Assembly: GCA_043228905.1 (NCBI GenBank)
Contig: JBHGNT010000007.1
Span: 6,448,001-6,512,000 of the forward strand
Reading direction: 5' to 3'
Origin: Azolla caroliniana
Lineage: Eukaryota > Plantae > Polypodiophyta
DNA length: 64,000 nucleotides
The stretch's first letter is position 1. Every line of letters starts with the position of its first letter. Shown piece by piece: positions 20,744-57,813 of this stretch. Position numbers and translations under genes: made by a program. Below the pieces are notes generated by a model. The model saw nothing but the letters and a program-made list of their open reading frames with translations. It was not told the origin of the DNA and made no database searches.

Positions 20744-23700
20744 TCAGTTGATGTTGTCCGCTTCGGATGGTATCCGGTACATCCGGCTCGTACTCTCCCT
20801 CAACCTTGGCATGTCAAGGACCGTCAACCCAAGGTCTGACAGGAATTGCCGAAGCTTGTCGGCTCCTAGGGCTTTGGTGAAGATGTCAGTTGTCTGAAGA
20901 TTCGTAGACATATGTTGAAGGTCGACATCGCCAACCTGAACACGCTCTCGAATGAAGTGATAGTGCACTTCGATATGCTTCGTGCGTGCATGGAACACCG
21001 GGTTCCGAGCCAGATAAATACTGCTCATGTTGTCACAGTAAAGGAGAATCAGATCTTTGATGGGAATGCCCAGATCCTTTAATATCCTCTTGAGCCATAC
21101 AGCTTCACATGCAGCCACCGCCGCACCCCTGTATTCGACCTCTGTGCTCGAAAGAGCGACTGTTGGTTGCTTCTTGCTACTCCAGGAGATGGCCCCACTT
21201 TCGAGGAAGACGACAAAACTAGAGGTTAATCATTGGTCGACTTTGTAGCCTGCCCAGTCGGCATCTATGTACCCCTCGAGTTGAATTGGCGTGGCCGATT
21301 TATAGAGAATGCCATAGTCCATCGTTCCGCTCACGTATCGTAGTAGTCTCTTAGCAAAATCCAAATGGATATCTCGTGGCGTTTGCATGAACTGGCTAAG
21401 AAGGCCGACCGAGGTCAGGTCGAGTGATCGTGAGGTAGATAAGACTACCGATCAATTGTCGATACTGAGTCGGCTCACACTCTGTGGTGACAGAATTGGC
21501 ATCTAGTTTGAGGTTTCGGTCGAGAGGTGTTGCCACAGACTTGCACTCAGTCATCCCGAACTTGTATAACAAGTTGAGAATGTAGTGCCATTGGGAGATC
21601 ATAATCCCAGCTGAAGTCCGAATTACCTCGATGCCAAGGAAGTAGTGGAGCTCTTTCATGTCCGTCATCTCGAATTTGTTGGAAAGGATGGATTTGACCT
21701 TGTTGATGTCGATTAGATGCTCACCTCCAATGACCAGATCATCCACGTACAGGATGATGACGATAAGACTTTCGGAATTGCTTCTTACATAGAGAGAATT
21801 GTCGGATTTTGACATTCGAAAGCCGATTCGATGAAGATATTGTGTTATCTTTGAGTGCCAAGCACGTGGTGCTTACTTAAGGCCGTAGAGAGGCTTCTTC
21901 AGTCGGCAGATGGCTTTCGGATGAATGTTGTATTCGAAGCGGGGTGGTTGTACCATGTACACCTCCTCTTCTAATTCGCCTTGAAGAAAAGCGTTCTTGA
22001 CATCCATCTGGTGGAGGTGCCACCCTTTTGCTGCTGCAAGTGCTATCACGGTTCGCAAGGTTGTCATCTTTGTCACTGGGGCAAAGGTCTCTTCATAGTT
22101 GACGCCATGTGTTTGTGCATAGCCCTTCACTACGAGTCGAGCTTTGTAGCGGTTGATGGAACCGTCAGCATTATACTTCACTTTGTATATCCATTTGCAA
22201 CCGATTGCCTTCTTGTGCGGTGAGTGAGGGACGAGATCCCATGTCTCATTCTTGCTGAGAGCTTGCATCTCCTCGTTCATCGCTTCGACCCATAGAGGAT
22301 CTTTAGCAGCTTCGGCAACGCTCTCCGGTTCTCGAACTACTGACACCTTCATCATAAAGGCATAGTGGTATGCCATATAGTCATTGTAGCCAAATCGGCT
22401 AACCGGATTCTTCTCTCGGGTGGAGTGATGGAGATTCTCATTTGCCGATGTGAGTGCTTTCTCAACTCCGGGTGACCTCATAAGAGGCACATCAAAGCCA
22501 TCGAACTCACTATCGAGTGAATGAGTTGATTCGTTGCCATCGAAGTGTTCATCTTCATATTCCGACATTTTGGCCTTCCCTTTGTCCATCTTTGGACTTG
22601 GCCAAGATGAGCTTTGGTTGCTTGGAGGCTCTTGTGGTCCACTCAATCTAGTTGAGATCGGATTCTCTTCGAGTATTGACCTTAGTTGATCATCGTCTTC
22701 TGTGTTGTCGAGGTCGTTCGTAGATGGTTCGGGAGGAGTCGGCTCGGGTTTGTACCATGATGTCAATTCGTCAAAGATGACATCCCGACTTACACGAGTC
22801 TTCCGAGTAGAGGGGTTGAAGCACTTGTACCCCTTTTGCTCCTGTGAGTACCCCATGAGGATGCACTTCTTTGATTTTGGGTCAAGCTTCTGCCGCTTCT
22901 CATCGGGAATGTGCACGTATGCAATGTAGCCGAATATCCTTACATGGGATAGATTTGGCTTCTTCCCATAGTATTTCTCGTGCGGGGTGACCTCGTGCAC
23001 TCCGGATGTTGTGCACCGGTTCATGAGGTAGACGGCGGTATTTGCAGCTTCTGCCCAATATGACTTGGGCATATGCTTCTCATTTAGCATGACCCTTGCT
23101 ACTTCGAGGATGTGCCGAATCTTGCGTTTGGCTACACCGTTCTGTTGTGGTGAGTGTCGGCAAGTGAATTCTCGTCGAATTCCTTCTTGTCGAAGGTATG
23201 CCGTGAACGCATCGGAGAAGTATTCCTTTCCTCCGTCTGACCGAAGACATCGTACATGACGCCCAGTTGTCTTTTCGACTTCGCTTTTGAATTTTTGGAA
23301 ATGTGTAAACACTTCACTCTTCATCCTCATGGGAAAGATCCATGTGTATCTAGAGAAGTCATCGATGAAGGTAACATAGTACCGACATCCTCCAAACGTA
23401 GCCGTCTGTGCCGGTCCCCACACATCCGAGTGGACTACGTCCAATAGGCCTTTGCTCACGTTCCTCTCCTTCGGGAATGGGTGTTGATGTTGCTTGCCGA
23501 ATTGGCATGGTTCACATACTCCTTCAATCTCTTTCTCTTTGAAGGTCGGGAGCCCAATGACGACTCCTTTTGATTGCATCGCCTTGAGTTTGTTGAGATT
23601 GATATGGCCGATTCTTTTATGCCATAGCTCTATGTCGGTGTTGTGTTTGAGGCCCTTTGCAAACATGTCCGATTTTACCTCGTTCGCTTCGAGGATAAAC

Positions 23701-25013
23701 ATTCGGCCTTCCCTTCGACCACGAGCAATTAGTCAGCCTTCCTTCTTGATGAAGCAACCTCCTTGGTTGAATCAAACTTGCATCCCTTGCTCCACAAATT
23801 GGCTGATCAAGACCAAATTCTTCGTTATGGTGCGTACATGTAAGACATTTTTTATGCAAGTTTGTTCACCTTCTTTCCCGAATGGGACATTGCCGACATG
23901 CCGAATCAGATGAGTGGTGTCGTCTCCGGTCTCAACATAACTGGGTCGATCCAGCTCTCGGAGGTCTTTGAACCATTCTTGATGGGACGTCATATGGTTC
24001 GAAGCACTGGAGTCGACGAACCATACATCTTCCGGATTGGAGGCATTAGTCGAAGTAGAGGCCGACATAGGATTTGCTCTATGTCTCATTATAAACATTC
24101 CGCCATGATCTTCATAGTCGGAGTTGGTGGTGTAATTGGTGAGTTGTCGGCTTGTGGAAGCTGACTCATGCTTCTTCTTTCAACACTCTTCTTCATGGTG
24201 GCTGATTTTTCCGCAATAACCGCATTCGATCGAGTTTTGTCGACTCGGAATGGAAGCTCCCCCTTCTTCCGAAGGTTCCTCGATGGCTTTCATTTTGTTG
24301 CCGAATTTGGGAGTTGTTGTCGTAAGTCGAACCTCGTCCGCCGCCTCGTCCTTGGCCGAATCGGCCTCTTGCTCGGCCGCGTCCTCTTCCTCATTTGAAT
24401 GCGTGTAGAGCATGTGGCCTTCCGAGGCGTTGCTCCTTGTTCGAACATGATTCTCTTCGACCAATAACATAGATTGAAGATCAAAGAAAGAGGGAGGATT
24501 CTCCCTTGCTAGGACGACGGTTCTCATCGAGCCGAACCGTGGTGCAAGGCCGCCGAGGCATATTTGCACAATCTCATCATCATCCACATTGACGCTTATT
24601 GAGCCGAGCAAGTCACAAAGCTCCTTGATCCTCAAGGTGTAGCTTGTGATGGACATGTCCCGTTGTTGGATGTTGTTCAACTCTTGGCGGAGTTGAAGCT
24701 TCCTCGCGGTCATGTTGGCGGTGAAAATCTTTCGTAGATTTTCCCACGCTTCCTTCGGCGTCTTGGCTTCTCGAATGTAACTGAGCATGTGGTCGTGAAC
24801 ACATGTCTCCAAGCAATACATTACTCGACTCACCGCTTGCTCCCATGTTGAGTAGTGGGCGTCTTTCGGGTTGGGTCGGTTTTCTTGTGCTCCCTTGATG
24901 TAACCCCAATAGCCTTGGCCGACAAGGTATTGGTGCATCTTGTACTCCCAAGATGCGAAGTTGTTTCGGTCCAACTTCTCGCTAGGGAGAGCGCTCCCCA
25001 TTTGAGTATTCAT
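20744..25013 (-). pseudogene. Copia gag-pol with frameshifts and stops
   Basis: gag (KLDRNNFASWEYKM, zinc knuckle CGYCGKISHHEEEC), protease (WFVDSSASNHM), integrase (VHSDVWGP, LRSDGGKEY), RT (QMDVKNAFL, LYVDDL), RNase H (RTKHIEVHYHFIRE). Confidence 0.95.
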
Positions 25014-25755
25014 GGTGTTCGATGTAGATTTCTTCCTTCTTCTTCTCTCTTGAATACAAGCTATGTAGTCACACTATGATAGCGATGAACCGGTTCTTCT
25101 TGAACGTCGGCGTAGAGCTCAACACACGCGGATGGGCTAGATGGAGCTACTAAACCGTTTTGATACCATGTAAATAATCAGTGGTGATTCTTGACAGCGG
25201 AATAGACGAGAGATATGTGTTGTGAGTGTGTGTGTGTATGAGAGAGAGAGAGAGAGAAACACAAGATAGATAGATTTGAAACAAGAATAGAATACTCAAG
25301 AGAATGTATATTACAAAGGAGATTAACCAAACATCTTACAAAGTAGGAGGAGAGTGCTTTATATAGTCACTCTCTCTCTTCATTAACTATTGAAGCTCAT
25401 GGGTCATGGGGAATGTGAAAGCTCATTAAACACCGGGTCATTTGAAACAGGTAATATGTCGCATTATGAGAACACTACGTCCAAAAAGGGCACAAAAGCA
25501 CACAGTTTTAAAAAAGACACGACGCATGCGTAAAGCTTTTCAGAAAAGGTGGCAAAATATATTGAATTTCAACATGACTACCACTTTGAGTCATAAGTAA
25601 AATGCCTCCAAAAATACATCACCAAAATTACAAAATAATGTACAACATGTCTACCAGTTACAATTATACATATTCGTGAGTTTACATCCAAAACAAATTT
25701 ACAAAGTTTCCGATCATGTAGTAAAACAATCCCCAGCTTGAACCAAACCAATATA

Positions 25756-25903
25756 TTAAGACATGTCTGATGGACTAGAAGAGCCTTCTGACGTCTCATC
25801 CTCATCATCAGTGGCAATCAAAGCATTATCCTCATCCAATTCCAACCCAACATCTTTGTGGTTATGAGAATTGCTTCTGGTTATTCTCTGTATTTCGTTT
25901 GAC
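25756..25903 (-). pseudogene. Displaced C-terminus of the outer transposase
   Basis: Joins in frame across TSD TGAC to 35311+: ...KIPNMVS|NEIQRITRSNSHNHKDVGLELDEDNALIATDDEDE...*. This matches the inner transposase tail RQTRSATYNLESNHLVYDEDNALIGTSEDDEE. Confidence 0.9.
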
Positions 25904-26951
25904 AACACGTTCGCGTTCACAAGTGGAAGGATTGCGCATTCCACTTGTAGAATCTTCTTAAAACGAAGCAAATACACCCTCTCTACAATAATTGGATGCA
26001 CTAGTATCACATGTTCCTCAACTTGATGAGAATTTGCAAATATAAAAATACATGATAGATCTACGAGTGGAGATCATTAGAAATCATGCAAGTTTAGACA
26101 TGTTGATAAGTTAATGTAGGCATAATAAAGTTCAACTATGGCTCAATATGGCACTATTGTGCGACAAGGGAAACACTAACTTAAAGACTTATATTAATTA
26201 GGTAGGTTTTACAAAAATATGAGGTGTACTTGTATCCATACTAATAAAATGAGATATAATTTATACTTTGACCCATACGTGCATGTATGTAATTGTGGAA
26301 AATGTAGGATAGTGCACATTAGGATAAGTGATTGGAATAACTAACTTATTAAAGTATTCAATACTTGTATTTAAAGTTGATCTAATCTATTCCTCAGTTT
26401 GTTCATATGGGATCAAACCATATGTGTATATAATTGTGCACAATGTAAGGCAGTGAACTTTAGGATAATGTCGTGGAAATAACAAACCTATTAGGCTTTC
26501 ATACCTGTATTTAAAATTGATCTACTCTATTGCTTAGGTGATTCACACAAGATCAAACTCCGAACGATAACGCAACTGGAACCATTATCAACACACTACA
26601 CAATCTAAGCAGCAATGGAATAGAAACATAATAGTTTTAACAATAGAAGACAAAGATCCATAATAACAACATGGACAGTCATGGCAACAATTATAGGGTC
26701 ATGTTCTGTTAAGGTTAGCTTGGACCAAAATCAGCCTCCATTTAAACTAGTTCATGTTTCTCCATAAGTTTGGTAGTCAGCTATGCACGCGGTGAAACCA
26801 ATGTCATAAATCTACTAATCAAGTATATAAAAATAAAATTGAAACATATAGAAGATTATAAAGAATAGAATCCACTAGGTAAAACCCAAAATTTGTATTA
26901 ATAATGTGAAATCTTAACAAATCGTCAGTGTCATATTCTTTATAGAGTCTA

Positions 26952-29900
26952 TTACATAGCAATCAATTCATCAACGTCATTTTCTTCATCATCTTGTGTA
27001 GAACTGTCTTCGGCTATACGTGCATTGGTTTCCCCTGTTAGCCGAGCCAACGAAATATCTTCTATAAGCTCATCATCAAGCTCTATTAGCTCCCCCGGTT
27101 CGCCGGCTAACGGAGGAATAGGCTCTCGCGAAGCAGGTTGCAACCTTTCTGTATTGGCGAGGTTCTTTGCACCGACCTCCTCATCCTGGTCTAGGCACTC
27201 CCACAAAGCCTTAATCCGCATATTAATAAATATAACTTGGTCCTCGTCCTTCTCCAATGCAACTGTATTTCTAAACAGCTTCAATGCACATGCTGACGTA
27301 GTTCCTATGATGTAAGTAACAAGAAGATTTAGTTGTCAAACGAAAAAAAAGTGATTGGTTATCTCAAGATCGTTACCCTAGTTCGAGGAATACCTGTGCC
27401 AGAAAAGAGATCTAATATCCAGTCTCCTTCGACAGAAAACATCTTGATCAAGCGCATCATAAGTCGTTGAGGTTTTTGGTATGGGTTGACAAGTCCCCGT
27501 TCTGTCGTGGTGACATGTCGCAATTTCCGAGTCACTGCTGGATATACCAACAGATTTGAACCTCCCACTTCATTAGAATGCTCTTTGATTCTCTGTTTCT
27601 TAATTTCATCGAAGTAGCCAACCGTTATGTATTCAATGGCATTAACGAACCGAAAAGTTGGCCCTCTATTTACATTGGTCTTGATCCTATAAAAAATAAT
27701 TCATCGAGTTAAGAATAGATTCAACAACCTTAAGAATTGCAATATAATGAAAGACACCTATAAATAATCCTTACCATGCAAGGTTCTCGATGCCATGGCA
27801 ACGAGATCTCAAAGCTTGAGCTACCGAGTACCCTTGGTCCATACTATGAAAGACAACTATTCGCCACAAGGATGCGGTCGTTAGCTCAACGAAATCCTTG
27901 ACCATCTTCTCCAATTGTTTAAACCTAAACGGTTCATCGTCGTATGATGACCCAGCCATTCGAAATCCGTAAGGAATATCCGCAATCATTAGCGTATATT
28001 CCTTCTTTGGCACCTTCTGGATCAAGTCGATGACATCACCGCAAACCACATTGTAGTAAAGATCTCTCGTAATATCTTTTTTGTGGCTAAAATTTTTAAA
28101 CGAGCCATCTTTCTCCATTTCGTACGCCTTGACTAAGCGACGATCCTTTTCTTTTCTGGCTCGCTCGAGATGTGCAAGGAAGGATGTAGGGAAATCGTGT
28201 ATATCCTTAACTTCTCCTTGTTTCTTGCCTCGACACGGTTTCTAATAGAAGCAATAGGACATCAGGTATTATTATACAAGCTCTACATATGATGAAAGGG
28301 TAATGAAAAAACATGAATACTAACCCAATCCTTGAATGCAATAAAATACTTTGATAACGCCTTATACGAAGACGTTAGAGGATAATCCTCGGTCACTTGT
28401 TCCCAAGTTATACATCCAAGTTGTTTCATCATAACTTCTTGGATCTTCATGTACACCTTATGACTTTAAAATTAGAAATCAAGATTAGAACTTTGAATTA
28501 CACCAGATAGACTACAATTTCAGTATTTGAAAGACTTACTTATTGAACTCAGTGACCATTTCTTCAAGGCTTAAATCTTTCGCCACAACCCTTGACAAAA
28601 CCGACACAAGAAGCTGCTCGTCCTTAATACCTTGCATCGCTCTCCATAGAGACAGCTTCATGTCGTCTGCCGCTTCTTCAATTGTCAAGTCAATTTTCTT
28701 GGCGGCTTGTGACTTTAACTCTAGTTGAGGGTCAACCCTACATTTCTTTTGTCGTTGACCCTTTACCTCCTTATTCTCCCACATTGAGAAGATTTGATCT
28801 TGTAGGTCCCATACTTCTCCATCTCTAAACGCCAATTGAAACCAAGACTCATACTTTCGAAGACCATCGGACCTAACATTATCATCTACCACAATGCCGA
28901 CTTCATGCAGACATTGACGTCGAAGGCCTGGATGTAACTTCACACCAAACTTTTGTTTCACATCTAAATACTCGTGGTGGAAGAACCGTATACGCTCAAT
29001 AGACGACATTTTCTGCCTATAGTCATTATCATTATTATGGTCCCATGCCAACAGCTTAGCCTCTTCGGTTGTGAGCCCAACATAAATTTTGCACTCGGCA
29101 TACTTGAAGAAGAAAGTGGTTGGATGTTCTCTCACAAGTTGCCGACGTGCCTCTGCTGAATGCGATCCACCAATGACAAAATAATTATATTGATCATGCT
29201 TTCTAATATCAAAATCTTCAATGGTTTCACATTCTTCAGGATCAACCATAACAATAAAAGGCACCACAGTGGCATGAGGATTAATTTTCATTTTTTTCTT
29301 GAGATTTTGAACATGCATGCGGTGAGGCTCTCTAATCTCAAGTGGTCGTCGACATGTTTTTTCATCAATAGGGGGCCGATGGATGTGTGTTATAGGCAAA
29401 TTAAATACTTGCCCTTTCCTGACCAGCTTCCGTTGCATTAACTCTCTCCTTATTTTATTCTGCTCGGATGACAAAACACCCGAGGCCAGCTCGGCTCCTG
29501 GCGTCCCCTTATTATCCTCTTCTTCATTTTCACTTGTTGAATCCGTATCCGACATTTTCGTTGTCTTCTTCTTTGCTGGTCTTGACTGGACTTTGGATAC
29601 CTTTTTTGTGGCCTTCAATGGGGAGGGCACTTCATCTCTTAGAGTTACATGGCCTTGTATATAAGGCCTCAAGGTAACAATAAGGTTTTGTGAGATATCA
29701 AGTGCTTTTTTGAACACTTCAGGCCCACAAGATTCCTTTACTAAAAGGTCTTCTAAAAGGAACACTTTACGTACCCCCTTGGAGCACTCTATCATTACCA
29801 GTATGTTGGCCGAATCTGCATCTTCGTAGTCAAATCGTAGAATACGGCCATACATAAATGGGGTTTCTTTTCCAAGCTGCCCCTCACCCTTCTTCTTTGC

Positions 29901-31348
29901 TGTATACAATACGACTTTTTTCTTTGAGTCGACATATTGCATACACCATTCCTTGTCCGTTAGATCTCGGTCAGGAAGGTCTTCGCCTCCAGAAGTGGCG
30001 ACAAGTTTCTTTTGGCTAACATCACTATGTGGCTGAGATTTTGTCTCTTCGTTAAAGAGAAGCTTTTTTCCTCTCTTCATGGTCTCAAGAGCTACCTTGG
30101 TCTGGGCTTCGATTGGAGAACCTTGTATGCAAAGCTTAATTTTCTTCACGGGTCGGTCCGACAGGTTCTCAAACGACCTATTTAAGAAAGTATATGCAAA
30201 AACATAAGTTAGGTAGTCACGTAGATTGAGGTTGTATATTATAATGAAGAACAGTTTCCAGGAGCAGTAACATATTCAAAAATCTATTATAGGCAGGGCT
30301 ATTCAACCTAGAAAATATATATCGTAATAAGTAAAACGGGTTATATATTCTTTTAAATAGTAGGTATGACTTATATAGATTCTAAACCTATATTGAGGAG
30401 AATTTGCCATAGTAAAGGCAATTTGTGGATCATTTTCTACTATTTTAAGCTAAAGTAGGTCATAAAACATCTATAATTAGAGCATGTATTTCTTTAAAAG
30501 TAAGTAAAGTCAACATAAAAAAGACTGATTTTGCCAGACAATTTGATATCATTTCCACCCCATAAACGATTTTTCTCTCTCAAAGCCTTCTTATATACAG
30601 GGACTCGATACGCCGTATCGAGTTCGTGTTTAAAACCTACACTTTAAACAGGAACTCGATACGCCGTATCGAGTTCGTGTTTAAAGTTTGAATTTTAAAT
30701 AGGAACTCGATACGCCGTATCGAGTTCGTGTTTAAGACCTACACTTTAAACAGGAACTCGATACGGCGTATCGAGTTCGTGTTTAAAACCTACACTTTAA
30801 ACAGGAACTCGATCCTACACTTTAAACAGGAACTCGATACGGCGTATCGAGTTCCTGTTTAAAGTGTAGGTTTTAAACACGAACTCGATACGCCGTATCG
30901 AGTTCTTGTTTAAAGTGTAGGTTTTAAACACGAACTCGATACGCCGTATCGAGTTCTTGTTTAAAGTGTAGGTTTTAAACACGAACTCGATACGCCGTAT
31001 CGAGTTCGTGTTTAAAACCTACACTATAAATAGGAACTCGATACGGCGTATCGAGTTCCTTTTTAAAATTCAAACTTTAAACACGAACTCGATACGGCGT
31101 ATCGAGTTCGTGTTTAAAGTGTAGGTTTTAAACACGAACTCGATACGGCGTATCGAGATTCTTTTTGAAACCTACACTTTAAACACGAACTCGATACGCC
31201 GTATCGAGTTCGTGTATAAATATTTGTATTGTATACATGAACTCGATACGGCGTATCGAGTTCTTGAGAAACGAAACATATTTACAAAAATGTCCACAGT
31301 GTCAGAGGCCTACCTGGAGTCCTCGCGCTCGATTCTCTTTGAAGACAT
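26952..31348 (-). CDS. ParB/Srx-like domain fused to a beta-class N6A/N4C DNA methyltransferase; 6 exons, 974 aa
   Basis: Exons 31348-31314, 30177-28540, 28463-28325, 28241-27775, 27686-27394 and 27304-26952; all introns GT-AG and phase-compatible (2925 nt). ParB-like segment EIREP..HVQNLKKKM..VPFIVMV..YFVIGGSHSAEARRQL. MTase motif IV LMIADIPYG precedes NPYQKP and motif I GDWILDLFSGTGTT, then RNTVALEKD. Confidence 0.88.
30594..31265. repeat. Tandem array of 13 full and 1 truncated 51-bp palindromic units inside intron 1 of the inner ParB-MTase gene
   Basis: Core GAACTCGATACG(C/G)CGTATCGAGTTC flanked by TTTAAACA(C/G)...(C/G)TGTTTAAA. Cores start at ~30601, 30652, 30703, 30754 and so on; the spacer orientation flips within the array. 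Confidence 0.95.
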
Positions 31349-31464
31349 GGTTGATCGTGTTGAAGTGGAGGCGGAGATTGCGCTTTCGTGCTTTGTGCTC
31401 TGAGCGCTTTGTGTGCTTTGTGTGCTCTCTACGTTCTGTGTGCTCTGTACGCTCTGTACGCTCT

Positions 31465-32171
31465 GGTGAGTGAAATATGACGAGGTCTTCCTATTTATAG
31501 GGATTGAACACATTGGTTAAAGTAACCATAGTCACCTTAACCAAGGTTGGTAACTTTGAGGATAGTTAGTGGGTAACCATAGTCACATTAACTAGAGTAA
31601 CTTATGATTGTATTAATGATTACAAAGTCAAACTAACATATTGATCAATCTTTTATAGTCATAACAACCTACAATGACTTCAAAGGTTATGAAGGAGACA
31701 ATGATAGAGGTTCATGAATGTACCAATGATTGATTACTAAAAGCAACAATTTTTATGACTCTCAAATGTTATGTATTAAAGATGTGGGCATGAATTAACC
31801 AATGATTGATAAGTCTAATATTTAAAATGGTGAGCATTAAAGAACCAATGCGTGAGACGTTCTATATCAAAATGGGTGCCATTAATTAGCCAATGATTTT
31901 AACATTAATCCAACATATTCATGGCTTGTTAATGATTAGTTTTATATTTTACTTGATTTAACATCATTTAGATCTAGTTTATATAATGATTGATAATTTA
32001 AGTACAATTACTTTATTAAAAATAATTTTTAGATGTATTGTATTAATAGAATATTACATAATATAGACATTCTATTGATTTGGCTTTTGTTTAGAGAGAA
32101 GTTTATGTTTAGGGAGGAGTATATGTTTAGAGAGGAGTATAACTTAGAGAGCCCTATCTAGACCTTAAGCC
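31465..32171. promoter_or_regulatory. Divergent promoter region of the inner element
   Basis: TATAAAT on - at ~31493-31499, ~145 bp before the MTase-gene ATG. Repeated CCAATG boxes at ~31723, 31799, 31845 and 31890 lie upstream of the transposase ATG. Confidence 0.55.
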
Positions 32172-34952
32172 ATGAGTGAAGATTCACCGTTCTCGATTGA
32201 AGAATATTGTTTGTCATCAGACCCATCGTTTTCTACTGAAGAGTATTGTTTGTCAACAGAGTCACCATATTCGATTGAAGAATATTGTCTGTCGACCGAC
32301 TCACCATATTCTATCGAAGAATATTGTCTGAGCTCATCTACAGGGAATGTAAATAATGACACATGTGAAGAGTTCTCTATTGAAGAATACGATATTAATA
32401 AAGATACCGAGAATGAAGGAAGTGCCCGGGAAACATTGAATAACATTGGCGATGGTCACAACAGAGAATTAGACTGTAACAAGGTTACACCAACCTCTAT
32501 GCAGGAAGAGAAATCTGGGAGCCCTATGCATATTAGAAGAATCCCACGAAGAATTCGTCTGGCTAGATTTAGCTTGGTGACATCAGATAAACAGATTGGA
32601 TTTGATGTCAACAAAATATGTTGTGCCCGTGGTTGTATGTCTATGATTGGAAAATCAAAGTTGCGAGAATTAAGGCGATACTATTTTTCGATGATCGGTG
32701 ATGAGCAAGACACTTACCTCGGATCACATATGCAACTAGTATCTGACAAATGTACGGGGATCAAAGTATCATTCGAGTATTATATCTTCCATGCGCAACA
32801 GATATGTAGAGTTGCATTCAAAATTGCGTTATGTGTTAGTAACATGCGGCTACATAGAGTACAACAACGTCTACTTAGCGGGGATCAGATGCTCAATTGT
32901 AAAGAGGTTCCAAGTATGAAAGGTGCAATTGGAAGACTAGCTATTGGCTGGATGAAAACTTACTTTCAGTTAAATTGTGAAGTAATGCCCACTACAGGTA
33001 GGATGCATCTTTCTGATAATTATACCCGTCGGGAAGTTTATGATGTCTATCGATCTGAAATGCTGGGCTCACGTAATAAGTCTATCACCTACAGCCAATT
33101 CACAAGATTATGGAGAGCTCGGTTTTCAAATGTTATTATTCCTCGTAAAGTACGTATGGGGTATTGCTCCATTTGTGCAAATCTTAAAAGTTTGGCTAAA
33201 GGTGCAAAGACATCAATGGAAAAGGATACGAGTAAGAAGTTACTACAAGAGCATCGTGAGGCACAATCCTTAGAACGAAGGAAGGCGATGCATCATAGAG
33301 AGAAGTGTTTGAAGAGGCCTGAACAATACATGTGCTTAATGATAGATGGCATGGACCAGAAGAAGACATGCTTGCCGCATATGCGGAGGCTCCCCAAAGA
33401 TGTCAATGATGAGTGCCTTGTTCAAATGCACTTGGTGGGATGCTTGGCTTATAATAGGTCTGTTCGACCTCACGTCTTCATTACTTACCCCAATGTTCAC
33501 AATGACCCTAACCTAACAGTTACAGTGATTCACCAAGTTTTGATGTCTTGGGGACAACCTTTCCCCCCTGTTCTATACATTCAATTGGACAATACTGCTA
33601 GAGAGAACAAAAATTCAACTGTATTTGGCTATCTAAGTATGTTGGTCAACCTAGAATTGTTTAGGAAAGTGAAAGTCAATTTCCTTTTGGTTGGCCACAC
33701 ACATGACCATATAGATCAGATGTTTAGCACATTCTCTAGACAGTTGTCTCGGCATGATGCTTTCACTTTACCTAAACTATTTGATGTCATTTGTGATGCA
33801 TATACACCACGCCCAAAAGTGTTACACTTTAAGGAGGTATATGACTTTAAGAGATATATATTAGATGGGGGTGGTGGGAATGTTAAAGTGCTTGCTCAGT
33901 TAAACAATATAAGTTTCAATCACATTTTTTTGATAAAGAAAAATGGAATAAGTGGTTCTACACTTTTGTATGCTAAACAATATTCATCTTCTACAACATG
34001 GGAACCTGAAGGTGGTTGCCAGTTATTACTTTGTATGCCGAGTACAATTGTCCATGGAGCTAAGCAAATGCCAATTGAGAAGAAAGGACAGTTGCAGAGC
34101 GACTTGGTATCAGAACAAAAACGGTCATGGCTCCAAGCCTTAGAAGAAAAAAGAAAGCATATTGAGGCCGCCAAGAAATATGCCGCACAACAAGACACGT
34201 CATGGTGGGATGTATTTTATAGTGATAAGAAAGAAATTATAGACAATTGTGTATCTGTTGATAATTGGAATTTGGAAACGCCATTCACATGGTCGCTGCA
34301 ACATGATCGCGTAAATAGAAGTCCGGAGCGACTAGTAAATGCGATTAATGACAACTTGGTCCATCCACAACAAAGAGACATTTATGTGGGACCAAGGATG
34401 ACCAAAGCAGCCGAAGCTAGATGGCAAGGAAATTTGCAAGAGCTCACCGCGGGGATGTTGATTGCAACGCCGGCTGATGAGAACTCACATGGCCACCAAT
34501 TTTGGGTTGGTAAAATTCTAGAAGTGCTAATGCATGAAATAGAAAACACGATCAAGTCTATAAATGTTCATTGGTACAACACTAGAAGTGCAAATGCTTT
34601 TACAGGTAAGTATACATTGGAGATGATTGAATGCCAAACAAGAAGGGGAGGTAGGAAGAGGAAGCGAAACATTCGTAACACCTCGACCCTTGATATCTCT
34701 GATGTGGATATCATCGTGTACGACTTCACACTTACAAAAGCCGGACGATTAAGGAAGTCAACAATAGATATAATAAAAGAAAAATTACCAGGTCTACAAG
34801 GTGGCTCGAGTCAAAGGCAAACGAGATCTGCTACATATAATCTAGAGTCAAACCATTTGGTTTATGACGAAGATAATGCACTGATTGGTACATCCGAGGA
34901 TGATGAGGAGGAATCGTCATTGTATATTAGTTATAGTAGTGATTCTCCGTAA
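32172..34952 (+). CDS. Sola-like DDD transposase (DUF7869-type core), 926 aa, intact and intronless
   Basis: Cys/His motifs (CCARGC, ICRVAF, YCSICANL..H); putative catalytic motifs MIDGMDQKK, QLDNTARENKN and FLLVGHTHDHIDQMFS; lies within TIRs with a 4-bp TSD; C-terminal FWVGKILEV..INVHWY module. Confidence 0.85.
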   Translation: MSEDSPFSIEEYCLSSDPSFSTEEYCLSTESPYSIEEYCLSTDSPYSIEEYCLSSSTGNVNNDTCEEFSIEEYDINKDTENEGSARETLNNIGDGHNRELDCNKVTPTSMQEEKSGSPMHIRRIPRRIRLARFSLVTSDKQIGFDVNKICCARGCMSMIGKSKLRELRRYYFSMIGDEQDTYLGSHMQLVSDKCTGIKVSFEYYIFHAQQICRVAFKIALCVSNMRLHRVQQRLLSGDQMLNCKEVPSMKGAIGRLAIGWMKTYFQLNCEVMPTTGRMHLSDNYTRREVYDVYRSEMLGSRNKSITYSQFTRLWRARFSNVIIPRKVRMGYCSICANLKSLAKGAKTSMEKDTSKKLLQEHREAQSLERRKAMHHREKCLKRPEQYMCLMIDGMDQKKTCLPHMRRLPKDVNDECLVQMHLVGCLAYNRSVRPHVFITYPNVHNDPNLTVTVIHQVLMSWGQPFPPVLYIQLDNTARENKNSTVFGYLSMLVNLELFRKVKVNFLLVGHTHDHIDQMFSTFSRQLSRHDAFTLPKLFDVICDAYTPRPKVLHFKEVYDFKRYILDGGGGNVKVLAQLNNISFNHIFLIKKNGISGSTLLYAKQYSSSTTWEPEGGCQLLLCMPSTIVHGAKQMPIEKKGQLQSDLVSEQKRSWLQALEEKRKHIEAAKKYAAQQDTSWWDVFYSDKKEIIDNCVSVDNWNLETPFTWSLQHDRVNRSPERLVNAINDNLVHPQQRDIYVGPRMTKAAEARWQGNLQELTAGMLIATPADENSHGHQFWVGKILEVLMHEIENTIKSINVHWYNTRSANAFTGKYTLEMIECQTRRGGRKRKRNIRNTSTLDISDVDIIVYDFTLTKAGRLRKSTIDIIKEKLPGLQGGSSQRQTRSATYNLESNHLVYDEDNALIGTSEDDEEESSLYISYSSDSP
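32175..32340 (+). repeat. Four 39-bp (13-aa) coding repeats at the transposase N-terminus
   Basis: SEDSPFSIEEYCL SSDPSFSTEEYCL STESPYSIEEYCL STDSPYSIEEYCL. Confidence 0.9.
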
Positions 34953-35310
34953 AGGAGTGATCATGAATGTATATTTGGCTATTAAGTGTAACTACATTCC
35001 GCTTGTAACAAATCGAGTAATATAAAATCATGTGTTTTGAATTCTTATGATTTCTAAAAAATCGTTTCTTATAAAATAACATTGGTTGTAAAGTTTGTGA
35101 TATAAATTGAGAATGTATGTTTTTGAAATTCGTCTTTTTTTAGTTACTTCTAAATCACGAAAATAGTGGATTTTTAACCTTTTTCATAGTATGTTTGAAC
35201 TTGTATGATACTGGTATCAATGTGTTTTGTAAAATCATTGAAAAACCCCTAAAATTTCCCTTATCCTTCCATTTATGCGCGATCCTTCCACTTGTGAACG
35301 CGAACGTGTT

Positions 35311-37840
35311 TGACACCATGTTTGGGATTTTCTCCTTTATTATCTTGATAGTTGCTTGTCTTAGATGACCTGATTTTGTCAATGAGAAGTCATATAATAG
35401 TATGTCAACACGGTCTAGTGCGAGAGTAGCCGTGCTCAGTATATTCTTTCTTCTTCTCTTTCTGCTTGAACATCCGACATCCTTAACCATCTCTAAAGAA
35501 TACTTTCCTGTAAATGCAATAGTTGAATTTGTCTGATACCAATGGACTACCATTGACTTTGTCTGACTACTTTCTTCATCCCTTACTAATTCAATAATTT
35601 TTGCAATCCAAAATGGATGGCCCAAGGTATCGTCCCCTGCTAATGTTGCAACCAACATTCCCACTTGTAGTTCTTGCGAATAACCTTGCCATCTTGCCTC
35701 AACAGTACGTGACTTTCTTGGTCCCACATAAATATCTCTTTGCAGTGGCCGAACTAAATCATGAAGCTCCATATTATTCGATTATTGGTGATGAGTCTGC
35801 GATATCGTTGATGTCATCCCAATGTTCCATGTGAATGGGATACGGACTAGCCATAAACCGGCGATGTAATTATCTAAAATGGTGCGTTGATGGGTGAAGA
35901 AAATCTCCCACCATTCAACATCCTCATCACCGGCATACTTCTTAGTCCGATCAATATTATTTTGTTTCTCTGCTAGACATCTCAACCAATATGCCCTTTG
36001 TTCATCAATAGTACTATTTGGTGCTACATTTTTACGATCATCATATGGCATTTGTTGTGCACCATGTAGAGGTTCATCTGGGATATGAAGAAGGAGCCTA
36101 CAACCTTCTTGGGGCTCCCATTGTGCACTAGATGAGTATTGTTTCGCAAACAACACCGTCATCTTCAGGTGGGCCGATCTTTGTTTTATGAGGAAGACAT
36201 GGTTGAAACTTATATTATTAAGAGTTGCAAGCACCCTACCTTTAGTCCCTTCACTATCCATGCAGAAACGTTTAAAGTCGTATACTTCTTCCAAGTGTTG
36301 TACTTCAGGCTTTGGTGTATATGCTTCACTAATCAATTTGGATAGCGTGGGAAGTGTGAAAGCATTACAGTGAGCAAGTTTCTTTGAGAACCTACTGAAC
36401 ATTTGATCTATGTGATCATGGGTATGACCAACCAACAAGAAGTTAACCTTTATCTTTTTAAATATGCCCCTCTCTACTAGCATGCTTAGATAGCCGAAGA
36501 CAGTTGAGTTCTTATTCTCTCTTGCTGTGTTGTCTAGTTGCACATATAGAACTGGCGGGAGTATACCTGACCATGATTGCAATACCCTGTGCATGACAGT
36601 GACAGTAAGATTAGGGTCGTTGTGGATATTGGGATAAGTTAAGAACACTTGCAGTCTTATAGTTTGACAGTATGTCAAACAACCCACTAGATGCATTTGC
36701 ACGAGACACTCATCTCCAATATCCTTGGGGAGTCTTTGAAAATGCGGCAAACAAGTTTTCTTTTGATCCATGCCGTCAATAATCATGCACATATACTTTT
36801 CGGGAGATTGAAACGCTTTTTGTCGGTGATGCATAGCCTTAGTACGTTCCAATGCCTGACTTTCACGATGTTCTTTTAACAGGTTCTTGTAATTCTTGAT
36901 CTCTACATCTGATTTTCCACCCTTGGCCATACTTTTTAAACTCGCACATATTGAGCAGACTCCCATTCGCACCTTTCGTGGGATAACCACGTTATTAAAT
37001 TGTAACCTCCATAGTCGATTAAAATGCATGTACTGTATGTAAGGCTCAACATCGGAAGACATGTCGTCCTTGTACGATTGGTAAACTTCCCTTCGAGTAA
37101 AGTTATCTGACAAATGAAGTCTTCCTGTCGTTGGCATAACTTCGCACTGTTTTGAAAAATATACCTCCATCCACCTAATTGCCTGTTGCCCAATTTGACC
37201 CTTACATCCAGAACCATTTTGATCGAACTGTACCCAGGAGCCCTTCACAAGTCGCTCTTGAACTCGTTGCAGCCGCATATTTCCAATGCTATGAGTGATT
37301 TTAAAAGCTGCTCGACAACACTTGGTATATAGTCCAAGGAAATATTCAACTTGCGTTGCATTAGGCCCTGTTTTGTGATCCAATTTAAGTTGCATATGCG
37401 CAAGAAGAAATGTATCTTGCTCTTCCCCATTAAGCGACAAGTATTTTTGTCGTGTTTCATGTAACCTTGACTTTCCATAAGTTGATAGACAGAGATTCAC
37501 ACAACACGATTTGTTCAAGTCGCATAGAAGTTGACGATCAGAACATAAGAAATTAAATCTCTTTTCACTAACTTGTCAAGGAACTCTTTTAAATGCTAGA
37601 GGTTTAGTAATGCTATTGTTATCTATCGACGAAGAATCGTCCGCTTGTAAGCTTGCATGAAGAGGGCCATCAACAGGATCAATTGAAAACAGAGAATTCG
37701 AAGTACTAGGAGCCACACTTTTTTGTTTAAGCCGCGAATGTTTTTTGTGGTCGTACTCTTCTATTGAGAAATACGAGTTATCTGACAATGAAAAGGGGGC
37801 AATAGAAAAAAGAGATGTTCTACTTGTAGAAGAAGATATT
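35311..37840 (-). pseudogene. Outer-element transposase pseudogene
   Basis: Collinear homolog of the 926-aa protein (IIDGMDQKKTCLPH, QLDNTARENKNSTVFGYL, GHTHDHIDQMFS, FWIAKI..VVHWY). In-frame stops at 37576-37578 and 35782-35784; interrupted by the inner element. Confidence 0.9.
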
Positions 37841-38136
37841 TGAGGGAGTCTAACTATATTCTAAAACCTTCTTTTGAGAAAATTAAGGAATGCTAAAGCC
37901 TAACTATATAACTACCCGAACACTTAGATTAACTATATTATTTTCCGAAATTTTCCTAAAAAACAAATAATTAAATATTATTTTTTATTTTAAAAAGAAT
38001 GCTAAAGTCTTCTATATAAGCAAGTTAGAAATTTCATTTTCATTATCACATGAAAGAATCCATCGAGCTCAGAGCACAGGCCAATTTTCGAGCACTCAGA
38101 AGCACATCGTGGATAGCACTACCTCCGGCACAAACC

Positions 38137-41100
38137 ATGAACAAGGGAAAGAAAATCGTCAGGTTAGTAATATTCATTACATTTTTTAAGATTCCTAAAG
38201 ATTCCTTAAAGATTCCTTTCCTCAACACATAGAAATTTTATTTTATTTTGTACAACGAACTTGGAAAGCAATTCTGAAAGCCAGGACCTTCAACCAAAAT
38301 CCGATGCACTGCAACGGATTTCGGTTGAAAGTCCTGCCTTTCAACCAAAATCCAATGCACTACATCGGATTTTGGTTGAAAAAAATGTTGTTTTTGCGAT
38401 AAAAAACTATCGCACGGGACCATAAAGTTGACGTAATTTAAATGATAATTTGCGTGATTTAGATGAAATTGTACGTTGTTTCTATGTTTTCACCAACGTT
38501 TTTAATTTCAGTGAACCCAGACAAAAAGTTCCTTCATTTAGATTGAAGATTTGATCTCTGACAAAACGAGATTCTGGCTCCTTCATGAAGGACACGAGTA
38601 AAAAGAATTTATTTGACTCAACGGGGGAAGGAGGATCCAAGTCATCTGTGGCTACTACCAAAATCAACAAAGGTAGTACGCAAGAGGAGAAAACGGTTGA
38701 GGTGAAATATAAGGATTACCCCGAACTTGAATGGTGTCTCTCTTATGTCGAGGAGGATGGGGTGTTGTTATTGATAACGACAAAATCGGACGGGGAAGGG
38801 AAACTTCAGCTTGGAAAAACATTTAATTACGGGCATGTAACCAAGCTAGAGTACGAAGACATTGATTCTACATGTATTTTAATCGACGTCTCGAGCTCAG
38901 TTGGCGACAAGCGATTGCGACTTGATGAGGGAAACCTAGTACCCGAATCTTGCAATCCCAAGGCTTTGCGTAAAGACCTGCAAACGAAAAATAACTTGTT
39001 GGTAGCTCTTCGGCCGTACGTGACAGGAGAGATGATGACCGGTGAAGCAGAAACTCCACCGAAAAAGTCTAGGAAGACAAATCCTGTTCAAAAGAAATAT
39101 ACTAAACGACCACGACCCGAAGAAGAAGAAGAAGAAATATTAGAGTTCGTGGAAGAAGAAGACGACCAACAAGTCGACGTCGTGGCTCCAGGCGGACAAC
39201 TATCTTCTGGTGTCCTGACGTCAGAACAAAATAAAATAAGAGAAAATATTGTGAAGACTAAACTTGTGCGCAGGGGCCAACTATTTCATTTGCCCATTAC
39301 TTCTATCCAAAGGCCCCCCATTGACCCCGTGACTGGAAGACGTCCCTTGGAAATTAGGGAGCCGCACTCCGTCCATGTGCAAAACCTGAAAAGCAAAATG
39401 AAAATCAATCCTCACGCTACTGTGGTGCCATTTTTGGTAATGGTTGATCAAGAACAATGCCCAACAGTAGCAGATTTCAAGTATAGCTCTGCAGACGATT
39501 ACACATACTATGTAATCGGAGGATCACATTCGGCCGAAGCTCGACGACAGCTTGTCAAAGAATATCCTCTCACGCCGTTCTTCAAATACGCCGAATGTAA
39601 GGTATATGCAGGACTAACTCACGAGGAGGCGAAGCTGCTCGCATGGGACCATAACAATGACAACGATTATAGGCAAAAGATGTCATGTATAGAGAGGATA
39701 AGATTTTTTCATCATGAATACCTCGATGCCTTGAATCGTTTTGGTCCAAGATTGTGGCCTGGATTGCGACGTCAGTGTTTATTGGAAGTAGGGATTGCAG
39801 TGGATGAGAGTACCAAATCCGAAGGTCTTCGAAAATATGATTCTTGGTTTCAACTAGCTTTTCGGACCGGAGAGGTGTGGGATCTCCAAGACAAAATATT
39901 CTCTATGTGGGAGCGGAAAGAAGTCAAGGGGCAAAGATCAAAAAAGGGAAGAATTGATCCACAAGTTGAGATGAAATCAAAGACCAAGGGAAAAAGCGAC
40001 TTGGTAATCGAGGAGTTACCAGAGGACATGAAACTTTTACCTTGGAGATCATTACAAGGTATCAAAGATGATAGATTGTTAATATCCGTGCTATCTCGAG
40101 TGGTTGCCAAGGAATTTAGTTTGGACGAGATGGTAACAGACTTGCAAAAGTAAGTGTTTATAGTATACCTTTTCATGAAAGTCTTCAATTCTTTTGAATA
40201 TCTTATTTCTAATTTCATATTGATTGTGCAGTCACAAGGTATACATGAAGATTCAGGAGTTGATGATGCAAAAACTGAGTTTACCGACATGGGAAGAAGA
40301 ACTTCTTCCTACAAGGCATTGGAGGAATATTTTATTGTATTTAGAGAATGGGTATGTGTCTTTTGAATGTTGATATGTTAGAAAGTAATGTTCCTTGCTA
40401 ACAACAATGACACTTGCAGAAACCATCAAAATCGAAAAAGAACAACGACAATAATGACGGTATTCCAGCGGCCTTCATCATGCACTTAGAACGTGCGAAA
40501 TATGAGAAGAGAATGACCAAAGGGAAGGAAATGGAACTGCCCGAGGATTCGGAGACTGTAAAGAGTTTTTTGCATAGGTTCGATCCTTTCAAACAGCTTC
40601 ATTATAGTGTTTTCAATGGCGAAGTATCCCAGATGCTCGAACTGTTACCGAGAAGGCACTACACTTTGCTGATAGCTGACATACCATATGGTTTCCGTAT
40701 TGCGGGATCAACATATGATGATGTGCCTTTCAAGTACCCTTAGATCGAGAAAATGGTAAAGGATTTTGCAAAATTGACATTGGCCCCCTTGTGGAGGATA
40801 GTCATATTTCATAGCATGGGGCAATCACTGTCAGTCACAATAGCTTTGAAGTCCCGTTGTCATGCCACTGAACACATGCATTGGTGCGTTATAGTTCGCT
40901 TTTACTCATTACAGTACTTCTTATTATATGTACACATTTACACCTCTAATACTTGATTTTCTTTCTCTATAGGATCAAAACAAATATTACACGTAGCCTT
41001 GGCGATCGAATGGTTAGTGCGGTCGAACATTTTTGTGTGGGATACTATGATTCAATTACAAAAAAGAAGGCTAGAGCACATGTCAATGAGCGTAACGTGG

Positions 41101-41702
41101 TTAACTACATCATGTGCCCAGCTGTAACCAAAAAATTAAGACATGTGTCAGGGGATAAAAGTATGGTGAACCCTTATCAAAAACCTCAAAGATTGATCAA
41201 CCGCCTCATAGAGCTCTTCTCGAATCCAGATGATTGGGTCCTAGACTTGTTCTCTGGCACAGGTATAATATATATATTTAATTTCAATCTTGTCTATCAA
41301 GTTTAAGATGTTACTTCTTATATATACTTGTTTGTGTTCATGCGACCATTAGGTACAACGATAGCTTGTGCATTGAAGATGTTTAGAAATTGTGTTGCAT
41401 TGGAGAAGGACCCTGCTCAAGTTAACTTCATCAAAATGAGGATCACAAGAATCTGGGACTGTCCAGATCAGGATCAAGAAGTCGGAGCAAAACACATCAA
41501 CGAGACAGAGATGTTCCAGATGACTTCACGAGAACCAATGGAACCAATTGATGAAGAAGCAGGGGAGCTGGTGGACCTGGAAGATGTAGCACAGTTTGAC
41601 CATACATCAGATTCGGGAGAGCTTGGAGATGACACGAATGAAAACAGTCTAGAACAATCAGCGCCAGAGGAGCCTGCTCTGCTTGATTTGCTTATACATT
41701 GA
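38137..41702 (+). pseudogene. Outer-element ParB-MTase gene (6 exons, disabled)
   Basis: Exons 38137-38162, 38512-40149, 40232-40351, 40420-40883, 40973-41262 and 41353-41702, with the same intron positions as the inner copy. TGA at 38552, a frameshifting deletion near 40298 and TAG at 40741. Retains IGGSHSAEAR, ADIPYG, NPYQKP and LDLFSGTGTT. TATA-like TATATAA at ~38013. Confidence 0.88.
38288..38385. repeat. Two palindromic units 51 bp apart in intron 1 of the outer ParB-MTase gene
   Basis: TTCAACCAAAATCCGATGCACTGCAACGGATTTCGGTTGAA and TTCAACCAAAATCCAATGCACTACATCGGATTTTGGTTGAA; the caacc motifs start at 38291 and 38342. Confidence 0.85.
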
Positions 41703-43734
41703 TGTAGATGGCGTAATGTAAAAATTGAGGATTTTGAGGCATAATGTTCACCATCACTTCATATTATATTTGTATATGAGAACATCTGTAATTGTTTATT
41801 GTTTAATTAAATTCACCTGTTCATAATTTCCCTTTTTAATCATTATTGGAACCGTTGTTTGTATTTACATATAATTGGTCACCATGCTCTTCTTCAGTTT
41901 GAGATATTAACATGATATTGTAATTTCTCATTTCCGTTAGCATGACTGTATATGAAAAGGCGAATGTTTTTGATAATAAGAGGTTTTTAGTTACCTACGG
42001 TTCAAGTCTACTGGTTCCACATAGTATAAATGAATGTCGTACGTAATTGTTACTCTTACCAATTACATTGTCATGAACTATATGACATTATACAATGAAA
42101 CTATCGATATACCCGTCCAACAAGTGGGGTACTACTTTATTCCTAAACCCAAAACCACATATTTATAATTACGGTTTATGTAGTTTTACTCTACAATTTG
42201 AATATGGATACCAATTTTAGAACTTTATATTGAACCAAGTCTTCAATTGTGCTCCATGATATGCAAATTGACACGAATGTGGACACATATACAATTTAGT
42301 AATTGCTAGGTTTTTTTTGTTCTATATTTAACCATCAAGTCGCAAAAGGGGTACGCATGCATCGTATATTTTCCATATCATGCTAAAATAGGGTACTTTT
42401 CTACATCTGGCCAACTATGCCAAAAGAGAATACGACATATTACCTGTTTCAAATGACCCGGTGTTATTAGTTATGTGTCATAGAATATGATTCTATGACA
42501 CATAGTTAATGTGTGGATAAGAGTGGTGACTTTTGACCTTTGAGTGCACACTCTCAAGGGTGTGTTCACACACTAGACTAGGTTGAGCTTGATTCTCAAC
42601 AATTCAATATGTGAAACTTATTGATCAATATTTGTGCTACATATCAATCACACTATTGGCAATACAACATTTCTTTCTAGTGCACCTTTTCCTTGGATTA
42701 TATCGTTTGCAACAAAAATACAAATGCAAAACCAACTTATAATAATGAAATATGTTTCAAATCAAACCACCATTACACCTAGGGTTCAAATGATGTTTGA
42801 AAAAAACAATAATTCATTAGATTAGAGGAAAGTAATGGAAACAATTCTACATTAGGGTTTAGGGTTGCACACTAACAACTTGCTCCTAAGAAAATGGCTT
42901 TAAAACACAATATCCTTCCATTAAAAATGCAACACTAACAAAGAGGTTAACCAATTTTGCTTATAAGACGAGAAGTTTACTAAACAAGTCTGATATTGAA
43001 ACTTAAAACTTACAATAACAAATCAAACAGTCACAATATATACAATAAATTCAAAACAAAATCGACGAACTTCACCATACTTAAAACTTAGTCTTTACAA
43101 CAAATAATCATCTTAAAACATAAAACATAAAAGTTAAAACATAAATCAACTTATAAAATACTTGAAACTTAAAACTAAATAAACTTAAAACATCCTTTTA
43201 ACATAAAACCACTCAAGCCATGTTTAGGGCTCATTTGGAGATGATGGTAAGAAGCGGTCACAATTCTTGCAACAATCAACATTCGAGTCCCTTGATCTAA
43301 AGGTGAAGGCATCACAATGCAAATATCGAATCTTCTCTGTCGCATATATTGACAACCGCCTCCTAGCTCAACTTGCACCTCTTTGCATTTTTCCGGTGTG
43401 TGTTTTGGAAGTGTTTGGGGAGCTACCAATAAGATCTTGTGAAATGTTGACTGACTCTTCACACCAATTGCTTGCTTCCGCCTTATAGATCCACCGTCTT
43501 CTTCATTGGTTGGTTTTGGTGCACCAACGTGATACTCCACTGTTTGTCTCAGTTCTTTGTAGGACGCCATACATGCCAAAATTTTCGTACGGGCAAGGAA
43601 TTGTAACCCTTGCTTGAGACATTGAATAACAACCTCAATCATTTGTAATTCTGACTCCCATTCCTCCATATCTGACTCAAACTATGATTAATTTGCATGT
43701 TAATATGATCGTTTTTTTAAAATAAGGATAGACG

Positions 43735-57810: not shown

Positions 57811-57813
57811 ATA

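Follow-up and report, generated by a model that had tools for sequence, protein, structure and literature searches.

What does a plant cut-and-paste transposon do with a DNA methyltransferase gene of its own? The question is raised by a 64,000-nucleotide stretch of the Azolla caroliniana genome (NCBI GenBank assembly GCA_043228905.1, contig JBHGNT010000007.1, positions 6,448,001 to 6,512,000; hereafter the window, in whose numbering all coordinates are given), where two related DNA transposons, one nested in the other, each carry a transposase gene head-to-head with a spliced gene for a predicted ParB-like methyltransferase. We propose, with a probability of about one half, that they belong to a self-binding, self-methylating Sola1-like family in which this cargo has an anti-silencing role. 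The ParB-fold protein, with its helix-turn-helix (HTH)-like region, would dock as a dimer on CGATRC-N3-GYATCG sites in the first intron of its own gene, and the fused beta-class amino-methyltransferase would add methyl groups, with N6-methyladenine (6mA) favoured, to nearby element DNA. The methylation would extend over the divergent promoter region that the two genes share, at a distance of 0.9-1.6 kb, keeping the promoters usable despite CG and CHG silencing by the host. Self-binding and self-modification have been put forward for transposon accessory genes before (PMC12477816; bioRxiv 2025.02.11.637652).

The two elements and the retrotransposon that received them are delimited as follows.

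25429..42465, unstranded: outer element, decayed, 7,626 bp without the insertion
25429-25461 and 42433-42465: outer terminal inverted repeats (TIRs), 33 bp, perfect, starting with AACAC
25425-25428 and 42466-42469: outer target site duplication (TSD), ATTA
25904..35310, unstranded: inner element, 9,407 bp, with two open frames
25904-25939 and 35275-35310: inner TIRs, 36 bp, 35/36 matching, starting with AACAC
25900-25903 and 35311-35314: inner TSD, TGAC
20318..42601, minus strand: host Copia retrotransposon, target of the outer element
20318-20711: Copia 3' long terminal repeat (LTR), with the decayed gag-pol at 20744-25073
25160-25428 and 42466-42601: Copia 5' LTR, split by the outer element

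An earlier note on this DNA, made from the sequence alone, had placed both elements, their AACAC TIRs and their 4-bp TSDs exactly. It had called them two separately bounded elements, and each does have its own TIRs and TSD, but they do not lie side by side: the inner element inserted among the final codons of the outer transposase gene, severing its 3' end, and the outer element lies within the Copia 5' LTR, so that the nesting is three deep. Both insertions have an empty site, namely a single ATTA at the corresponding point of the Copia 3' LTR for the outer element and, for the inner one, a single TGAC at the corresponding point of L025, a metagenome locus that shares 98.4-98.7% identity with the outer element and is without the inner one. 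Contigs in 2/3 DNA runs also skip 9411 bases, that is the inner element and one TSD. The Copia LTRs agree at 383/392 aligned bases, and the outer insertion is therefore recent and both DNA elements are recent movers. Thousands of contigs per DNA run align to the element at 85-100% identity in the three runs, counts that are consistent with a high-copy family; from the one run guessed to be RNA, a single contig was placed. Members of the family lie inside or adjoin one another in L027 (3280 onward), L012 (3960) and L049 (4040-6332), hinting that the family prefers inserting into relatives.

The genes of the two elements are listed here, with the coding model of the inner copy first.

31314..31348, minus strand: inner exon 1 (11 codons and 2 nt), with a similar exon in L029, L034 and L035
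28540..30177, minus strand: inner exon 2, with an N-terminal domain, acidic linker, ParB/Srx fold and HTH-like region
28325..28463, minus strand: inner exon 3, a helical linker
27775..28241, minus strand: inner exon 4, with motif IV DIPY at 27980-27969
27394..27686, minus strand: inner exon 5, with NPYQKP and the start of the S-adenosylmethionine (SAM)-binding motif DLFSGTG; PF01555
26952..27304, minus strand: inner exon 6, completing the methyltransferase fold and adding an acidic tail
32172..34952, plus strand: intronless gene of the inner transposase (926 aa, DUF7869), with D392, D473 and D515 as the predicted triad
38137..41702, plus strand: outer ParB-methyltransferase pseudogene, with exons 38137-38162, 38512-40149, 40232-40351, 40420-40883, 40973-41262 and 41353-41702
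35317..37824, minus strand: main body of the outer transposase pseudogene, with 50% identity to its inner counterpart and two in-frame stops
25756..25890, minus strand: outer transposase 3' end, severed by the inner element (tblastn, aa 881-924)

The inner ParB-methyltransferase gene is predicted to have six exons coding for 974 aa, five GT-AG introns and zero internal stops, head-to-head with the transposase. The model is supported because it is collinear with a Chara protein (699 columns, 29% identity) and because introns 2-5 are shared across the family; in a survey of 82 sequences, with both window copies counted in, these introns keep the same codon positions and GT-AG ends in 66/71, 50/53, 42/43 and 47/50 of the testable sequences, respectively. 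The earlier suggestion that the copies share all their intron positions stands for introns 2-5, but for intron 1, which has phase 2 after a short exon 1 in both window copies, the N-termini do not align and a common position does not follow; exon 1 was not located in 7/15 sequences tried (six without a candidate and one doubtful). A six-exon gene and a three-aspartate (DDD) transposase had also been credited to each element, which is true of the inner one with its open frames, but in the outer one both are pseudogenes, a point that had been missed. The outer methyltransferase gene is interrupted by a TGA at codon 23, loses its frame through a deletion of 19 nt in exon 3, and meets a TAG in exon 4.

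We next consider how tightly this gene is tied to the family, using 80 metagenome loci, chosen as the best among 144 that were confirmed; these are related to one another and probably represent collapsed assemblies of repeats, and the open-frame filter favours intact copies. Among the 80 fetched, the upstream sequence reaches at least 3.5 kb in 10 loci, and 10/10 of these have a head-to-head transposase; both TIRs are present in L025 and L062, and nearly so in L034. Protein distances of the ParB region and of the transposase are strongly correlated (Mantel r 0.956, 0/5000 permutations; 11 rows from about three clades, near-duplicates present). The frame is open in 31/36 sequences spanning the four canonical introns, and across 19 representatives that are 63-94% identical the motifs DIPYG, NPYQKP and DLFSGTGT are invariant. 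For the methyltransferase domain, the median ratio of nonsynonymous to synonymous substitution rates (dN/dS) is 0.035 (15/171 pairs, the others being saturated at silent sites), and for ParB it is 0.031 (4 pairs). The linkage, the conserved introns and the low dN/dS support the gene being a fixed and selected part of the family and no chance capture, as had been argued before from the two window copies.

The protein domains to which this selection applies are the following.

aa 84-192, at 29637-29963, minus strand: conserved 109-aa N-terminal domain with invariant E, W, Y, D, C and P
about aa 260-396, minus strand: ParB/Srx fold, in exon 2
about aa 403-471, minus strand: HTH-like helical region, in exon 2

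The order of the motifs DIPY (aa 692), NPYQKP (aa 827) and DLFSGTG (aa 852) is the beta order, with motif IV before motif I, and exon 5 matches PF01555 above cut-off (E 2e-8). The methyltransferase fold was examined in a model of the full-length homologue P0056, which is 29-32% identical to the inner exons (predicted local distance difference test score, pLDDT, 74.7), and its top structures are CcrM (E 7e-8), M1.HpyAVI, N4CMT, M.BceJIV and further enzymes of the beta class, with ParB structures after them. The model of window residues 244-471 (pLDDT 82.7) matches Noc/ParB in Foldseek (E 6.5e-4) and, by VIA-align, PadC, KorB, SerK and Srx with Z from 9.6 to 7.8, where the PadC match (Z 9.6) has a root-mean-square deviation of 2.7 over 96 aligned residues; the helical region after the ParB core aligns to ParB DNA-binding domains. 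The predicted folds thus agree with the earlier reading of a ParB/Srx-like domain joined to a beta-class amino-methyltransferase, the C-terminus modelling as such through P0056. A Pfam scan of the window proteins gave no ParB family match. In the predicted recognition helix, G-x-RKY is kept in 19/19 representatives. By visual prediction the N-terminal domain is rich in beta structure, and it may read chromatin (chromo and Tudor domains were considered); Atlas gives only Tudor/Spin rows at 0.76, and a 27-sequence profile of the domain found nothing in PDB or Pfam. The ParB-fold part (28800-29483, minus strand) has an Atlas link to fungal DUF3723 (0.96), suggesting that fungal DUF3723 is also ParB-like; DUF3723 is a common Starship accessory gene.

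The best clue to the mechanism is a palindrome array that the earlier note had overlooked.

30601..31263, unstranded: inner intron 1 array, 13 exact CGATRC-N3-GYATCG within 25-bp palindromes, candidate binding sites
38302..38316, unstranded: outer intron 1 palindrome, single, with one mismatch, exact in L025

Matches with at most one mismatch number 15 in the window, against 0.16 expected, and the palindrome scan found none within the TIRs. The array spacing is 51 bp, except for one of 76 and one of 52; 0/195 core positions differ among its sites and 3/325 positions of the 25-bp palindrome do, while the spacers come in several variants and in both orientations. In descriptive counts over the 82 sequences, 166/180 sites fall within 1.3 kb upstream of exon 2, which makes up 11% of the sequence, and at least one site is present in 20/21 testable loci, with none in L028. 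The number of sites per array ranges from 1 to 15, the outer subfamily having a single site. The R/Y pair is symmetric in 125/135 exact sites (71 A-T, 54 G-C), the centre takes 29 different triplets, and spacings are 31-33, 39-43 or 49-54 bp in 98/126 cases, with zero at 34-38 or 44-48, so that the favoured spacings correspond to 3, 4 or 5 helical turns. In the six loci with exon 1 located, the sites lie 55-140 bases past the exon 1 donor, and they are 0.9-1.6 kb from the transposase start. The palindrome resembles a dimer site, because it is symmetric, has a free centre and helical-turn spacing, and adjoins a ParB-HTH gene with a conserved recognition helix; on these grounds we regard the palindromes as probable dimer binding sites of the ParB-methyltransferase protein.

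The motifs bear on whether the fused enzyme works, and on which base. Catalytic and SAM motifs that are invariant among the fern-type representatives incline us, with some reserve, towards an active methyltransferase. Motif IV begins with D here, like that of 12/12 weak stand-alone matches (DLPYG), and DPPY is described for N6A enzymes and SPPY for most N4C enzymes (PMC8885841). Because motif IV starts with D and N4C enzymes mostly have SPPY, adenine is favoured as the base methylated, and we expect it over cytosine with reasonable assurance. As to purpose, the anti-silencing role appears to us an evenly balanced proposition.

Several observations weigh against the proposal. The outer copy, compared with L025, has C>T changes at 17/468 CG (3.6%), 22/408 CHG (5.4%) and 10/2116 CHH (0.5%) positions, which is the signature of host 5-methylcytosine (5mC), and the gene and its site gave no full protection; since the outer copy is without a working enzyme of its own, this deamination limits the anti-silencing idea and does not refute it. 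The inner copy deviates at 8 columns kept in at least 17/18 relatives, and it may be ageing, perhaps inactive. The methyltransferase fold is modelled on a stand-in homologue, P0056, with about 30% identity. The position that we take to be the ParB GxxR P-motif, going by the general form of the motif and by likeness to Srx, reads GGSHS in 19/19 representatives. The P-motif arginine is required for nucleotide binding in ParB (bioRxiv 2025.10.10.680097), and since it appears to be replaced here, a cytidine triphosphate (CTP) clamp is doubtful and is not claimed. Retrotransposon DAMs produced no 6mA in E. coli (bioRxiv 10.64898/2026.05.21.726589). The loci that yielded the site pattern are also those in which it was counted, and they are related to one another; the phasing signal drops to 0.42-0.45 on 31 distinct spacings. 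Finally, a distant Ginkgo-like group, about 40% identical, has DIPH as motif IV in 3/4 loci examined and DIPR in 1. Its upstream flanks of 0.7-2.9 kb, eight in all, contain no palindrome array, and a transposase is present in one locus only, L071, on the same strand. This group may have lost activity or may be built differently.

The alternative that survives best is that self-methylation acts as a brake or timer, repressing the divergent promoters of the gene itself and of the transposase, or tying transposition to hemimethylation after replication, as Dam does for IS10 and IS50. The sites lie within the gene's own intron 1, at the distances from the exon 1 donor and the transposase start given above; KorB and Noc, which are ParB-fold gene regulators, are among the best structural matches; and host 5mC still reaches the copies, all of which would suit a brake. 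Set against this, long upkeep at a dN/dS near 0.035 would be costly unless the element benefits, and the TIRs are without sites, and we consider this explanation unlikely.

A different product is conceivable, in that the enzyme would make N4-methylcytosine (4mC), for example at the half-site CG, blocking or mimicking host 5mC. Each site does hold at least two invariant CG dinucleotides, with the window array unvarying over its core positions, N4CMT is among the leading fold matches, and some enzymes with a D-type motif IV, such as M.BamHI, make 4mC. Motif IV is nevertheless DIPY (DFPY in Chara) and not SPPY, and the eukaryotic 4mC writers that are known have SPPY or TSPPY as far as their descriptions go, so this version of the chemistry is rather improbable.

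We hold it no more probable that the methyltransferase fold is non-catalytic and that the protein gathers element DNA or recruits host chromatin factors. The DIPH and DIPR motifs of the distant group and the apparent loss of the ParB arginine would fit such a scaffold, as would published parallels, in that DIRS1 methyltransferase domains are described as likely inactive (PMC4738411) and heterologous DAM tests are reported as negative (bioRxiv 10.64898/2026.05.21.726589). It does not account well for catalytic and SAM motifs that are invariant in 19/19 fern-type representatives, or for DFPY retained in 13/18 Chara-type matches. A neutral origin of the array, as a foldback satellite or as a region forming RNA hairpins, with the enzyme methylating another motif genome-wide, would suit the spread from 1 to 15 sites, the single site of the outer subfamily and the absence from L028, but is very hard to reconcile with a 15-bp core that persists across subfamilies with otherwise different introns, a free 3-bp centre, symmetric substitutions and whole-helical-turn spacing.

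The self-binding, self-methylating family that we favour can also be placed among known transposons. The inner 926-aa transposase matches DUF7869 (E 3e-51), and among 100 homologues of at least 400 aa, taken from 150 among the matches listed, the aspartates are conserved at D392 in 97/97, D473 in 100/100 and D515 in 97/98; the positions of the DDD triad were assigned from this conservation. A PDB sequence search with the transposase gave no match. Sola elements are defined by a DDD transposase, a 4-bp TSD and TIRs of 11-1124 bp with variable termini (PMC10741241), and here we find a DDD transposase, 4-bp TSDs with empty sites, and TIRs of 33 and 36 bp, with 27 AACAC ends in related loci, which bears out the original reading of a Sola-type DDD transposon. 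The family is likely Sola1, an assignment made through TIR likeness to an element of the fern Cibotium barometz typed as Sola1, cluster_4009, which has 19 copies, a 4-bp TSD and a TIR start of AACACC (PMC12973397 Table S2). Of the first 19 bases of its TIR, 15 agree with the outer TIR in a comparison by eye; the table row gives Sola1 as the only conserved domain, and neither the row nor the accessible text mentions methyltransferase cargo. The N-terminus of the transposase contains 39-bp tandem repeats coding for S-P-F/Y-S-I-E-E-Y (32180-32330), with an echo in the outer copy at 37576-37860.

The architecture had been presented as one of which no description was known, and that claim did not survive. 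In Sola1-1_Ec32 of the brown alga Ectocarpus, a 1104-aa ParB-like and N4C/N6A methyltransferase is encoded on the other strand from the transposase, and self-modification is proposed (PMC12477816). As described there, the element is like the family here in being Sola1, in its 4-bp TSD, in termini starting with AAC (AACCG there) and in the two-gene design, and it differs in being 21.5 kb long with 282-bp TIRs, where the elements here are 7.6-9.4 kb with TIRs of 33-36 bp. The accessible description names no binding site, and the Ectocarpus protein was not among the named matches of our homologue searches. The Plavaka PAG2/PAG3 cassette of the alga Bostrychia has inverted-repeat arrays beside a ParB accessory gene (bioRxiv 10.1101/2025.02.11.637652), and it resembles the family here in having DNA-transposon accessory genes, a ParB-like domain by tandem inverted repeats and a PF01555 methylase. 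Its transposase is EnSpm/Plavaka, however, and its ParB is fused to a 2-oxoglutarate (2OG) oxygenase and its methylase to SET, in separate genes, whereas a single ParB-methylase protein is found here.

Outside these algal elements, phage fusions of ParB with PF01555 (N6_N4_Mtase) are common (bioRxiv 10.1101/2025.10.10.680097; PMC4738411) and share the pair of domains, BFVD including long matches over both; in contrast, the protein here comes from a eukaryotic gene split by introns, and it has in addition an N-terminal domain and a long insert of helices. Bdelloid N4CMT and Marchantia DN4MT1 are likewise described as eukaryotic bacterial-type beta-class amino-methyltransferases, but they are reported as host genes with SPPY that make 4mC, without ParB and not as transposon cargo, whereas DIPY is found here. 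VANDAL elements, through VANC, also encode a factor that alters the methylation of their own element; VANC is described as inducing hypomethylation, whereas the element here encodes its own predicted writer. DAM retrotransposons, too, are described as altering their own methylation, and are unlike the family here in being retrotransposons with NPP-type enzymes (bioRxiv 10.64898/2026.05.21.726589). We found no land-plant report of such an element in the literature searched; Repbase Reports, subscription papers and preprint supplements may contain one. The general design is thus already in print; the present family extends it to a lineage of land plants, in compact form, and adds a defined candidate binding site within an intron.

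Self-binding and self-methylation have been proposed in the algal papers, the accessible parts of which report no test, and the present family offers material for one: it has open frames under strong purifying selection, a 15-bp candidate site and numerous subfamilies, and it is present in very many copies in a plant whose DNA is methylated at CG and CHG. If 6mA is made, the enzyme would be a source of 6mA in a multicellular lineage that is described as having lost it, and it would provide a second transposon anti-silencing route besides VANDAL.

Beyond Azolla, we find named relatives of the gene in Ceratopteris (the closest named protein, 71%), two Adiantum species, Ginkgo (Gb_10123) and 18 Chara braunii clusters, where DFPY is retained in 13/18 Chara-type matches, and close DUF7869 relatives are encoded in Chara and Riccia. 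That this marks a streptophyte-wide Sola lineage (Chara, ferns, Ginkgo) with a parS/ParB-like read-write system, its protein loading on helically phased palindromes and placing 6mA over its own element, is a tentative extension, which we consider doubtful. If it were true, land plants would have a localized 6mA made by a transposon and opposing CG/CHG silencing, and a site-programmed adenine methylase in one polypeptide. In the distant Ginkgo-like group (L001, L002, L008, L077), introns 2 and 5 are kept and the predicted recognition region differs; in L071, the transposase fragment lies at 188-2403, upstream of the ParB region on the same strand, unlike the head-to-head layout. The Chara CBR_g41648 model (P0040) holds two tandem ParB-methyltransferase units (DFPY, DLPY), possibly two neighbouring copies fused by annotation.

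A methyltransferase tree of 12 fern-type members, 8 Chara-type members including P0056, and 12 weak stand-alone matches assumed to be prokaryotic, with Ginkgo and the DIPH group excluded, resolves into three clusters and is uninformative on the donor. No close relative of the ParB part was found in viral and prokaryotic collections (0/52 and 0/24 candidate stretches). We reject contamination or a prophage in view of the spliceosomal introns, the host genes nearby, the insertion into a Copia LTR and this lack of a relative in the viral and prokaryotic collections.

The surroundings of the nested elements contain the following host genes and repeats.

1-1113 (minus strand), 2516-4477 (minus strand) and 15661-18471 (plus strand): host genes, two pentatricopeptide repeat (PPR) genes and a Zein-binding (myosin-binding) protein
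55679-57825, plus strand: second decayed Copia
58863-63901: decayed Gypsy-like element
47270-47518 and 50631-50889: inverted repeat arms, complementary to about 74%, and related to a piece at 19840-19960

The stretch between and including these arms (47270-50889) is probably another TIR element. Short tandem arrays are present at 43747-43979, 46649-46718 and 5034-5570, with 23-bp, 11-bp and 41/43-bp units and microsatellites.

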